64,000 nt of DNA from the sequence record PP400787. One strand, 5' to 3'. This stretch comes from Escherichia phage FL23. The position numbers and the translations under genes were made by a program. This document shows, piece by piece, positions 47,309 through 51,540 of this stretch; position 1 is the stretch's first letter; every line of letters starts with the position of its first letter. Under the pieces are notes generated by a model that had not been told where the DNA came from, made no database searches, and saw nothing but the letters and a program-made list of their open reading frames with translations.

Positions 47309-47689
47309 ATGTATATTGGCAAAAAGTATGAACTTGTTCCAAGACTTATTGATACATTTATTAATTATAGCCCACGTTCTAATTCATCAATCGTTAAAGC
47401 TATTCGAGATAATGGCGGATGGTTTGAAGTTAAAGAAGTTTCCGTCGCTAATGGATATAAAGCAGTAAAACACATTGAATGCGCAAATGGAAAGCATTTT
47501 TACCTCAAAGATAGACTTTTAGAAATTTGCGAAGATGAATTTCATTGTTTTCGTGAGTATAAAGAACCGACTTCTGAAGAAGATGAAGTCAAAGACAAGG
47601 TTTCTGGCGTAACAAAAATTCACTGCATTGTTGACGAAAACAATGTAGATGAAATCATTGAACTTTTGCAAAAAACTTTCAAAAAGTAG
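47309..47689 (+). CDS. hypothetical protein, 126 aa
   Basis: ORF with GAGGAAA RBS. Confidence 0.55.
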   Translation: MYIGKKYELVPRLIDTFINYSPRSNSSIVKAIRDNGGWFEVKEVSVANGYKAVKHIECANGKHFYLKDRLLEICEDEFHCFREYKEPTSEEDEVKDKVSGVTKIHCIVDENNVDEIIELLQKTFKK

Positions 47690-47827: not shown

Positions 47828-48070
47828 ATGAGATTACAACGCCAGAGCATCAAAGATTCAGAAGTTAGAGGTAAATGGTATTTTAATATCATCGGTAAAG
47901 ATTCTGAACTTGTTGAAAAAGCTGAACACCTTTTACGCGATATGGGATGGGAAGATGAATGTGATAGATGCCCTCTTTATGAGGATGGAGAAAGCGCAGG
48001 ATTCTGGATTTATCATTCTGACGTTGATCAGTTTAAAGCTGATTGGAAAATTGTGAAAAAGTCTATTTGA
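47828..48070 (+). CDS. hypothetical protein, 80 aa
   Basis: ORF with AAGGAGAA RBS. Confidence 0.5.
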   Translation: MRLQRQSIKDSEVRGKWYFNIIGKDSELVEKAEHLLRDMGWEDECDRCPLYEDGESAGFWIYHSDVDQFKADWKIVKKSI

Positions 48071-48080
48071 GGAAAATATT

Positions 48081-48413
48081 ATGTCTGACATTCATGTAAC
48101 TGGAATTTCACAAGTAAATATTCGCTGCCAATTTAAAACTGTACCCGGGGTGACTCATATTACTTTATCACACGACCCATATTCTCGTGGAAGACAGTTA
48201 ACTGGTGTAATTAAGTTTTTCGGTGGAATTGGTGGTAATGAATTTACTATAGGCGATGAAGAAATTGTTGGCTGTAAATTAAAAGTTCAGAAAGGCGTGT
48301 TAGAACTTTTTAGTGATGAAGTTTTTGATGAAATCTCACGGGCAGTTAACAAAGGAATGTTAACGTTAATTAAAATGATTAAAGCTAGCGGATATGTTCC
48401 TGATCCTTTTTAA
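48081..48413 (+). CDS. hypothetical protein, 110 aa
   Basis: ORF with GAGGAAAA RBS. Confidence 0.5.
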   Translation: MSDIHVTGISQVNIRCQFKTVPGVTHITLSHDPYSRGRQLTGVIKFFGGIGGNEFTIGDEEIVGCKLKVQKGVLELFSDEVFDEISRAVNKGMLTLIKMIKASGYVPDPF

Positions 48414-48424
48414 TAGGAGATAAT

Positions 48425-49251
<827 letters not shown>

Positions 49252-49271
49252 AATAACGCGTGGCGGAAAAT

Positions 49272-49619
49272 ATGAATTTTAATTATTACCCTATTCTATT
49301 AGAAAAAGACATGAAACAGCCAAAATGGCAAGGTCCTCAGTTTATTAAAGGTGTCTATCAATTAGTAGTTCCTAAAGACAAGATTTATAGCAGTTGTTTC
49401 ACTGAATCCGCTTGCAGTATTTTCGGTAATAGTTCTCCGTATTGGAATTTTGACATAAAGCTGGATAGAAATATCGATATTTGGTTGAAAGCTATGGATA
49501 TTGGTAATATCACGTTTGATGAGAATAATTATCATATTATTGGTCGCTTTTCCAAACGCGGTAAAGAATTATATTTCACGCCTGAAATTGAGAGAAAATT
49601 TGATGCTAAACCGTATTGA
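49272..49619 (+). CDS. hypothetical protein inserted between frd and td, 115 aa (GTG 49260 alternative)
   Basis: Open frame filling a ~410-bp spacer between frd and td; weak RBS. Confidence 0.45.
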   Translation: MNFNYYPILLEKDMKQPKWQGPQFIKGVYQLVVPKDKIYSSCFTESACSIFGNSSPYWNFDIKLDRNIDIWLKAMDIGNITFDENNYHIIGRFSKRGKELYFTPEIERKFDAKPY

Positions 49620-49663
49620 TTATTAGCTTCATAAAATGTATTATAATTTATATAAGGTACTAA

Positions 49664-50212
49664 ATGAAACAATACCAAGATTTAATTAAAGACATTTTTG
49701 AAAATGGTTATGAAACCGATGACCGAACAGGCACAGGAACAATTGCTTTGTTCGGTACTAAATTGCGTTGGGATTTAACTAAAGGTTTTCCTGCAGTAAC
49801 AACTAAGAAGCTCGCCTGGAAAGCTTGCATTGCTGAGCTGCTTTGGTTTTTATCGGGAAGCACAAATGTCAATGATTTGCGATTAATTCAACATGATTCG
49901 TTAATCCAAGGCAAAACAGTTTGGGATGAAAATTACGAAAATCAAGCAAAAGATTTAGGATACCATAGCGGTGAACTTGGTCCAATTTATGGAAAACAGT
50001 GGCGTGATTTTGGTGGTGTAGACCAAATTATAGAAGTTATTGATCGTATTAAAAAATTGCCAAATGATAGGCGTCAAATTGTTTCAGCATGGAATCCAGC
50101 TGAACTCAAGCAGATGGCATTACCGCCTTGTCATATGTTCTATCAGTTTAATGTGCGTAATGGATACCTTGACCTTCAGTGGTATCAACGATCAGTAGAT
50201 GTTTTCTTGGGT
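49664..50212 (+). CDS. td: thymidylate synthase, exon 1 (183 codons)
   Basis: TS N-terminal sequence ending ...DVFLG, followed immediately by the intron 5' end TAATTGAGGCCTGAGTATAAGGTGAC. Confidence 0.92.
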
Positions 50213-51228
50213 TAATTGAGGCCTGAGTATAAGGTGACTTATACTTGTAATCTATCTAAACGGGGAACCTCTCTAGTAGACAATCCCGTGCTAAATTGTA
50301 GGACTGCCCTTTAATAAATACTTCTATATTTAAAGAGGTATTTATGAAAAGCGGAATTTATCAGATTAAAAATACTTTAAACAATAAAGTATATGTAGGA
50401 AGTGCTAAAGATTTTGAAAAGAGATGGAAGAGGCATTTTAAAGATTTAGAAAAAGGATGCCATTCTTCTATAAAGCTTCAGAGGTCTTTTAACAAACATG
50501 GTAATGTGTTTGAATGTTCTATTTTGGAAGAAATTCCATATGAGAAAGATTTGATTATTGAACGAGAAAATTTTTGGATTAAAGAGCTTAATTCTAAAAT
50601 TAATGGATACAATATTGCTGATGCAACGTTTGGTGATACATGTTCTACGCATCCATTAAAAGAAGAAATTATTAAGAAACGTTCTGAAACTGTTAAAGCT
50701 AAGATGCTTAAACTTGGACCTGATGGTCGGAAAGCTCTTTACAGTAAACCCGGAAGTAAAAACGGGCGTTGGAATCCAGAAACCCATAAGTTTTGTAAGT
50801 GCGGTGTTCGCATACAAACTTCTGCTTATACTTGTAGTAAATGCAGAAATCGTTCAGGTGAAAATAATTCATTCTTTAATCATAAGCATTCAGACATAAC
50901 TAAATCTAAAATATCAGAAAAGATGAAAGGTAAAAAGCCTAGTAATATTAAAAAGATTTCATGTGATGGGGTTATTTTTGATTGTGCAGCAGATGCAGCT
51001 AGACATTTTAAAATTTCGTCTGGATTAGTTACTTATCGTGTAAAATCTGATAAATGGAATTGGTTCTACATAAATGCCTAACGACTATCCCTTTGGGGAG
51101 TAGGGTCAAGTGACTCGAAACGATAGACAACTTGCTTTAACAAGTTGGAGATATAGTCTGATCTGCATGGTGACATGCAGCTGGATATAATTCCGGGGTA
51201 AGATTAACGACCTTATCTGAACATAATG
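50213..51228 (+). mobile_element. td group I self-splicing intron (1016 nt) carrying I-TevI
   Basis: 5' sequence matches the T4 td intron as recalled; ends ...ACATAATG before exon 2. Confidence 0.88.
50344..51081 (+). CDS. I-TevI: I-TevI GIY-YIG homing endonuclease, 245 aa
   Basis: MKSGIYQIKNTLNNKVYVGSAKDFEKRWKRH GIY-YIG motif; C-terminal zinc finger and DNA-binding domain. Confidence 0.92.
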   Translation: MKSGIYQIKNTLNNKVYVGSAKDFEKRWKRHFKDLEKGCHSSIKLQRSFNKHGNVFECSILEEIPYEKDLIIERENFWIKELNSKINGYNIADATFGDTCSTHPLKEEIIKKRSETVKAKMLKLGPDGRKALYSKPGSKNGRWNPETHKFCKCGVRIQTSAYTCSKCRNRSGENNSFFNHKHSDITKSKISEKMKGKKPSNIKKISCDGVIFDCAADAARHFKISSGLVTYRVKSDKWNWFYINA

Positions 51229-51540
51229 CTTCCATTTAATATTGCATCATATGCTGCGTTAGTTCATATTGTAGCTAAGATGTGTAATCTTATCCCAGGA
51301 GATTTGATATTTTCTGGTGGTAATACTCATATCTATATGAATCACGTAGAACAATGTAAAGAAATTTTACGTCGTGAGCCTAAAGAACTGTGCGAACTTA
51401 AAATTGATTGGCCTATAGAGTTTGAAAATTGTGACACCGAAACACAGCTTTACTGGTTAACTGAATACATGAAACCGAAAGATTTTATCCTTGAAAATTA
51501 TGAATCGCATCCGGCAATTAAAGGGAAAATGGCAATATGA
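51229..51540 (+). CDS. td: thymidylate synthase, exon 2 (103 codons)
   Basis: In-frame continuation [15 protein letters not shown]...; exon 1 + exon 2 = 286 aa. Confidence 0.9.

Follow-up and report, generated by a model that had tools for sequence, protein, structure and literature searches.

The small gene between frd and td in Escherichia phage FL23 is td.1, very probably an ancestral gene of T4-like phages that was deleted in T4

In phage T4, the genes for dihydrofolate reductase (frd) and thymidylate synthase (td) are fused at their junction: in the reference genome (NC_000866), on the minus strand, frd ends at 145109 and td starts at 145112, with a 4-bp ATGA overlap and no ORF between them. 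The nucleotide-metabolism genes of T4-like phages are interleaved with small, conserved early-region genes, i.e., frd.1 (DUF5417), frd.2 (FRD2), frd.3, nrdA.1 (DUF4326) and nrdA.2, which, like the gene described here, are of unknown function. In a published genome-wide CRISPRi-ART knock-down screen, frd.2 was the only T4 gene of unknown function to be scored as fitness-important, and the phage used, T4, has no td.1 (PMC11879866). T-even phages also carry free-standing homing endonucleases, the seg enzymes being of the GIY-YIG and the mob enzymes of the HNH type (PMC2988022). The closest described relatives of the gene in question are td.1 of T6 (ABI48938 in AY262134.2, a "hypothetical protein"), which occupies the same position between frd and td, and RB32ORF229c, which is the same gene in RB32 and RB51; in the library of papers searched, none names either td.1 or RB32ORF229c.

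The DNA analyzed here, referred to as the window, is a stretch of 64,000 nucleotides from Escherichia phage FL23 (PP400787), a Tequatrovirus; over the 701 bases around the ORF, identity is 100% with Escherichia phage FL44 and 98% with many T-even-type phages (Table 1). The original prediction, made from the letters of the window, gave the ATGA overlap of T4 correctly, and its description of the FL23 junction, a gap of about 410 bp holding an ORF of 115-119 aa with a weak ribosome-binding site and no recognizable motif, was accurate. The gap is 412 bp long, and td.1 is its sole long ORF on the + strand, beginning at either an ATG (the start used in the T6 record) or a GTG codon. The only Shine-Dalgarno-like element is an imperfect GGCGGA, a putative ribosome-binding site for td.1, and neither Pfam, NCBIfam nor PADLOC returned any family for the protein at E<=10. 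Promoter- and terminator-like matches across the region were no commoner than in shuffled sequence, and no promoter is claimed, since a MotA-box-like AGCTTCA within the spacer is wrongly spaced from TATAAT. An Rfam search of the region gave no family for td.1 or the spacer, and no stable RNA fold was found in the td.1-td spacer (z 0.28).

Table 1. Features at and near the frd-td junction of the FL23 window, and positions of the td.1 paralogue and the 68-aa ORF in other loci (numbered within each locus)
Feature	Position	Strand	Remarks
frd.2	47309-47689		Pfam FRD2; same gene cluster
frd.1	47828-48070		DUF5417
DUF7247 protein	48081-48413		110 aa
81-aa ORF	48425-48670		No Pfam match
frd (dihydrofolate reductase)	48670-49251	+	Pfam DHFR_1 E 1.5e-19; DHFR label in all matching phage records
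Inverted repeat, left arm TATATAAAT	49241-49249		9 nt, perfect
Direct repeat TAAATGAAA, left copy	49245-49253	+	9 bp; includes frd stop TGA (49249-49251) and ATGA motif
Mini-ORF of two codons (ATG AAA TAA)	49248-49256	+	Opened by the ATGA motif at the frd stop
frd-td spacer	49252-49663		412 bp
td.1, alternative GTG start	49260-49619	+	119 aa
Shine-Dalgarno-like element GGCGGA	49262-49267	+	Imperfect; 4 nt 5' of td.1 ATG; same in T6; putative
td.1 CDS	49272-49619	+	ATG start, 115 aa plus TGA stop; starts MNFNYYPILLEKDMKQPKW
Sigma-70-like match TTGATT-17-TATTAT	49616-49644	+	From sequence; matches in promoter scan at or below chance
td.1-td spacer	49620-49663	+	44 nt
Inverted repeat, right arm ATTTATATA	49646-49654		9 nt, perfect
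td ribosome-binding site TAAGG	49653-49657	+	Putative, read from sequence; inside td.1-td spacer
Direct repeat TAAATGAAA, right copy	49661-49669	+	9 bp; includes td start codon (49664)
td exon 1 (thymidylate synthase)	49664-50215	+	Pfam Thymidylat_synt E 8.8e-65; open frame runs into group I intron
td group I intron	50216-51225
I-TevI	50344-51081		GIY-YIG domains; carried by td group I intron
Rfam Intron_gpI match	50950-51180		42.5 bits
td exon 2	51226-51540		Thymidylat_synt E 1e-25
td.1 paralogue, locus L004	2817-3173
td.1 paralogue, locus L006	2059-2493
td.1 paralogue, locus L007	2809-3156
td.1 paralogue, locus L008	2790-3143
td.1 paralogue, locus L011	4332-4673
td.1 paralogue, locus L012	4344-4688
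68-aa ORF, EC121 (locus L009)	2539-2745
68-aa ORF homologue, locus L011	4670-4879
68-aa ORF homologue, locus L008	3226-3354

Several features of the surrounding region deserve mention in their own right. The ATGA motif retained at the frd stop equals the start of td in T4 and the start of another small ORF, described below, in Escherichia phage EC121, and may be a relic of translational coupling. The td gene of FL23 is interrupted by a group I intron whose I-TevI gene is intact (GIY-YIG, zinc finger and DNA-binding domains), and the Rfam match to this intron falls under the gathering score of 50. The presence of td.1 is independent of that of the intron: T6 and FL23 have both, T4 has the intron only, and FriedrichMiescher has td.1 and an uninterrupted td. 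On the other side of frd, the DUF7247 protein and the 81-aa ORF, both absent from T4, lie between frd.1 and frd, an interval that in T4 is only a 71-nt gap, and thus T4 looks reduced there as well.

The ORF between frd and td is td.1, an already annotated small gene of T4-like phages. Its product is 99% identical to that of T6 td.1 and matched PHROG 1928 along its whole length (E 1.8e-35; residues 4-111 against profile positions 2-125/126), and it belongs to that family both by this match and by its same-strand position between frd and td. At a DNA identity of at least 80%, td.1 occurs in 362 phage records. Some records carry other labels for it, i.e., "putative homing endonuclease" (BASEL phages and ValerieMcCarty04; records MZ501066, MZ501050, MZ501113, MZ501067 and OR271596) and "putative dihydrofolate reductase" or "reductase" (OM386666, OK272484, PV287714, OK272476 and PP526941). 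The neighboring gene has been affected as well: gp175 of Potts1 (MN013081), which stands in the frd position and has ~47% identity to the Frd of the window, is labelled "putative single stranded DNA-binding protein".

An imperfect ribosome-binding site and the lack of a known domain are what one might see in a chance ORF, or a decaying pseudogene, within a non-coding spacer. Against this, a stop-free run of the length of td.1 arose in only 7 of 5000 shuffles of the spacer (p about 0.0014), the reading frame is intact across the 362 records, dN/dS is 0.05-0.13 across pairs, and the predicted fold of the product is confident. Between the window and Mosigvirus PTK, td.1 has 30 synonymous and 11 non-synonymous differences by the Nei-Gojobori method, giving a dN/dS of 0.053, compared with 0.19 for frd in the same pair, and the values for td.1 in other pairs were 0.04-0.16 before synonymous sites saturate. 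Ratios this low (0.05-0.07) show that td.1 is translated, and by these comparisons the gene is under strong purifying selection. The selection analysis rules out the chance ORF or pseudogene, to which we assign a negligible probability.

By tblastn, the td.1 protein was found in 580 phage records, in 218 of which its identity was under 60%, and at least seven T4-like genera (Tequatrovirus, Mosigvirus, Kanagawavirus, Jiaodavirus, Roskildevirus, Gelderlandvirus and Marfavirus) carry the gene in the interval from frd to td, in the orientation of its neighbors. The order is frd, td.1, td in Mosigvirus PTK and Jiaodavirus ValerieMcCarty04; frd, td.1, a td.1 paralogue, td in Kanagawavirus PEi26 and Gelderlandvirus STML-198; frd, td.1, paralogue, a 42-aa ORF, td in Marfavirus Potts1; and frd, paralogue, td.1, td in Roskildevirus Cronus. 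Two metagenomic T4-like contigs likewise have a homologue at this site and in this orientation. The start and stop codons of td.1 overlap those of its neighbors, usually by 1-23 nt, in both contigs and in six of the seven genera inspected, which suggests co-translation. Across the loci inspected, identity to the window proteins was 31-66% for Td.1, 46-50% for Frd and 78-87% for Td, and the Mosigvirus td.1 has diverged from that of the window about as much as its flanks have. With a divergence about like that of Frd, td.1 resembles a vertically inherited gene of moderate constraint.

In wider searches the family was confined to T4-like phages. HMMER, run exhaustively over 1.84 billion representative proteins, gave 22 matches, two of which were repetitive false positives, and the true matches, about 20 clusters, were all phage-like and 95-116 aa long. 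A word-indexed search with a combined profile of td.1 and its paralogue produced 31 proteins of 113-148 aa, all "hypothetical", and none of the 31 had a Pfam domain, a domain fusion or an informative name. In BFVD, two proteins of Aeromonas phages, A0A2H4YFY2 of Ah1 (157 aa) and E1A2K1 of phiAS5 (161 aa), bear a partial structural likeness to the Td.1 model (Foldseek E 0.009-0.03, TM 0.42-0.45), and the family may therefore reach the Aeromonas T4-like phages.

The paralogue adjoins td.1 in PEi26 (ORF-252), STML-198 (AFU63914), Potts1 (gp177), Cronus (AWD90399), where the order of the two is reversed, and both metagenomic contigs. It shares with td.1 the motifs LLE.D.VQKKW, HG.Y and GRF.K.G...F, a similar length and the same operon, and, unlike td.1, has an insert of ~20 aa directly after QKKW. 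The two were matched by hmmsearch at E 6e-17 to 6e-9, and at 1.9e-7 in the reverse direction; neither the rest of the window nor the T4 locus contains a paralogue. A third ORF of 68-69 aa (MSNKLKVKDVP...SWM) is located directly 5' of td in one metagenomic contig (L011) and is truncated in Potts1. Within Tequatrovirus, the 68-aa ORF (MSNKLKVKDVPNAM...YSWMN) is an alternative occupant of the junction, e.g., in EC121, where its start forms an ATGA overlap with frd, and it was found in about 137 Tequatrovirus records at an identity of at least 90%. This ORF is unrelated to td.1 and has no Pfam family. The set found in other lineages thus comprises three genes: td.1, its paralogue and the 68-aa ORF.

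How T4 came to have neither of these ORFs was approached through the junction itself. A 40-nt probe able to match nothing but a fused frd/td junction identified 32 records, about half of them T4 or T4 laboratory variants and the others RB55, RB59, vB_EcoM_112, HY03, SG1, G28, F1, FN, JEP6, FL12, FL18 and G2133, with a probe identity of 100% in all except G2133 (97.5%); the other junction states are those with td.1 (the 362 records) and with the 68-aa ORF (about 137). In FL23, td.1 lies between two copies of the direct repeat TAAATGAAA, and the in silico removal of one copy together with the 407 bp between them gave a sequence that agrees with T4 at 88 of 89 positions. The repeats are identical at 12 of 13 nt if extended, and identity of at least 9 bp at random pairs of positions 416 bp apart has a frequency of 0.00035 in the window. 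The T4 flanks have one mismatch in 89 to the td.1 allele and are 94% and 89% identical to the 68-aa allele; since they are closer to the former, the immediate ancestor of T4 probably carried td.1.

The original prediction had regarded the ORF as an accessory gene at a typical landing site for mobile genes. One part of this stood, i.e., that the ORF is real, additional to T4 and, inasmuch as T4 lacks it, dispensable, and the comparison of the junction across relatives showed it to be absent from T4 and without decay elsewhere; the part that did not stand was the insertion. A recent insertion where frd meets td in an ancestral T4-like phage, with duplication of a 9-bp target, would have left the 416-bp segment bounded by direct repeats that is seen here, but such repeats alone fit target duplication and microhomology-mediated deletion equally, and insertion is disfavored despite them because the outgroup genera are syntenic. 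The segment is also bracketed by a perfect 9-nt inverted repeat, TATATAAAT and ATTTATATA; since this is short, AT-rich and like the T4 late-promoter motif TATAAATA, it is probably a product of chance, and no terminal inverted repeat other than such short AT-rich matching was found around td.1. The GC content of td.1 (0.322) is slightly below that of frd (0.381) and td (0.375); it is nevertheless within the phage range, and its GC3 resembles that of the neighboring genes. In addition, Pfam detected no transposase or integrase domain in the td.1 protein, nor any nuclease motif, the Mosigvirus copy is about as diverged as its flanks, orthologues stand at the same site in distant genera, and the fused junction is limited to T4 and close relatives of near-identical sequence. 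Synteny thus largely refutes a recent insertion, which we consider very improbable. The fused junction is the rare state and equals a deletion between the 9-bp repeats around td.1: T4 is the exception (32 records with the fusion compared with about 500 with a gene there), and taking T4 as the baseline gives an ancestral gene the look of an insertion.

We therefore favor, with high confidence, a history in which td.1 is a genuine ancestral gene whose absence from T4 reflects repeat-mediated deletion. In this history td.1 is an ancestral member of the frd-td operon in T4-like (Tevenvirinae) phages, older lineages having as many as three small genes in this interval, their start and stop codons mostly overlapping. 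Tequatroviruses have retained td.1 alone, as in the window, the 68-aa ORF alone, or neither, and the empty state of T4 and a few close relatives arose by a 416-bp deletion between the two TAAATGAAA repeats, which joined the stop codon of frd to the start codon of td as ATGA.

The protein itself gave few matches. A Pfam scan of 23 family members found scattered single matches only (E>0.01), and PDB sequence profiles gave only noise (e.g., dynein and TagH, E>=0.045). The AlphaFold2 model, built from a 23-sequence alignment, is confident (mean pLDDT 92, pTM 0.84), with predicted strands at residues 6-12, 27-34, 38-40, 48-50, 62-64, 80-82, 86-96 and 99-104 and a helix at 68-76, i.e., the product is predicted to be a compact, mostly beta, mildly basic and aromatic-rich domain of about 110 aa. 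The median pI of the family is 8.6, and aromatic residues make up about 9% to 20% of its members and about 17% of the window protein. The residues W19, G27, G91, K95 and G97 are invariant in td.1 and its paralogues, and Q16, L9, Y29 and F93 are nearly so, as are N79 and F102 among td.1 orthologues alone; Q16 is invariant in the 23 td.1 orthologues but not when paralogues are added. Conserved sites are found in three places: the loop that follows strand 1 (Q16, K17/K18, W19), the beginning of strand 2 (G27, Y29) and the final hairpin (G91-R-F-x-K95-x-G97). The family alignment has no invariant Asp, Glu, His or Cys, and Td.1 shows no sign of being an enzyme.

A search with the Td.1 model found no significant structural neighbor, and OB-fold matches fell below the threshold; the lists of weak matches consisted mostly of OB-fold proteins (SSB, RPA, RuvA domain I, RMI, HIN, Teb1, Cdc13 and S1). 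The OB fold is a closed barrel of five beta strands, with a helix between the third and the fourth, and its ligand is bound by the loop that follows strand 1 and by the last hairpin. OB-fold domains are small and beta-rich, with one helix before the last hairpin, as in the Td.1 model, whose predicted order of elements (strand 1, a long loop, strands, helix, final hairpin) matches that fold, and the conserved aromatic and basic residues of Td.1 would sit at the places where OB folds bind ligand. The resemblance is a lead, not a demonstration. Td.1 would act by binding rather than by catalysis, with single-stranded nucleic acid or a partner protein as its likeliest ligand, and would be produced early in infection along with DHFR and thymidylate synthase; T4 shows that it is dispensable in the laboratory. 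The pI of 8.6 and the conserved W, K, R, F and Y residues bear on nucleic-acid binding only indirectly. As an assignment in its own right, a small OB-like domain that binds single-stranded nucleic acid or a partner protein is tentative, possible but somewhat doubtful; the account as a whole, i.e., an ancestral td.1 that T4 has lost and a product that is a binding, OB-like protein, we regard as probable.

Other functions have been suggested by database labels or can be proposed from the position of the gene. The records of the BASEL phages and of Klebsiella phage ValerieMcCarty04 would make Td.1 a free-standing homing endonuclease, for which there is the label and an intergenic site beside a gene that hosts a mobile intron, and nothing else. 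GIY-YIG, HNH, LAGLIDADG and other nuclease domains were absent from it at E<=10 in Pfam, although the same scan readily found I-TevI, 700 bp away, which served as a positive control, and the only match to a nuclease family among the 23 members scanned was a non-significant one to CdiA-CT RNase A in a single member (E 0.14). Since none of the invariant residues is acidic, His or Cys, the label is unsupported. At 95-119 aa the proteins have no separate DNA-binding domain, and they are distributed stably and in synteny, not sporadically, with a divergence that parallels that of Frd. On the grounds of nuclease domain, catalytic residues and distribution, a homing endonuclease was rejected and is extremely unlikely.

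A role in anti-defence or host takeover, in which a small early protein blocks a host factor, e.g., a defence protein or a nucleotide-depleting enzyme, and is kept or lost according to the hosts met, would suit a gene that is small, phage-restricted, without enzymatic motifs and dispensable in T4, at a junction polymorphic for presence, absence and replacement inside one genus. Its deep synteny, a dN/dS of 0.05 and a divergence parallel to that of Frd are, however, unlike those of typical arms-race genes, and Td.1 is not acidic, unlike DNA-mimic inhibitors. PADLOC and the other searches gave no defence-related match, which is weak negative evidence because PADLOC covers defence systems and not phage inhibitors; we consider such a role rather unlikely. 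A further alternative is an adaptor of the thymidylate cycle, i.e., that Td.1 binds to one or both of DHFR and thymidylate synthase, or connects them with the replication machinery in a dNTP-synthesizing complex of the T4 type. The invariable position between frd and td, together with the overlapping start and stop codons, speaks for it, but in phages the order of genes is by itself weak evidence, the same pathway operates in T4 in the absence of td.1, about 137 Tequatrovirus records have the unrelated 68-aa ORF instead, and no homologue is fused to a metabolic domain, all of which makes the adaptor quite unlikely. Still more speculative, and in our view improbable, is that Td.1 and its paralogue represent either a small fold not described before or an OB fold that has diverged extremely far, restricted to T4-like phages, that couples the DHFR/thymidylate synthase pair to ssDNA or RNA or regulates the pair. 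If such coupling were real, a component of T-even nucleotide metabolism would have been overlooked by the classical T4 model, because T4 had deleted the gene.

An ancestral gene with a binding product is the reading we carry forward. The view of T-even biology is unchanged unless the function of td.1 is tied to thymidylate synthesis or host defence, and the wrong public labels on td.1, i.e., homing endonuclease and reductase, should not be propagated. The gene is as constrained as that of a neighboring enzyme and encodes a domain with a confident fold and no significant solved relative, and for these reasons it is a clean, small target for the discovery of function in T2, T6 and therapeutic Tequatrovirus phages.

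Set beside the described systems, td.1 of FL23 is an ordinary, already known ORF: it has no material difference from T6 td.1, RB32ORF229c or PHROG 1928, none of which has been assigned a function. The frd.1-type small ORFs are unrelated to it in sequence; they are present in T4 and have Pfam families, and td.1 has neither distinction. Like the seg and mob endonucleases, td.1 has conserved genes on either side and is polymorphic among the T-even phages, but it differs from them in having no nuclease domain or catalytic residues, in being half their size or less, and in its vertical, syntenic inheritance.
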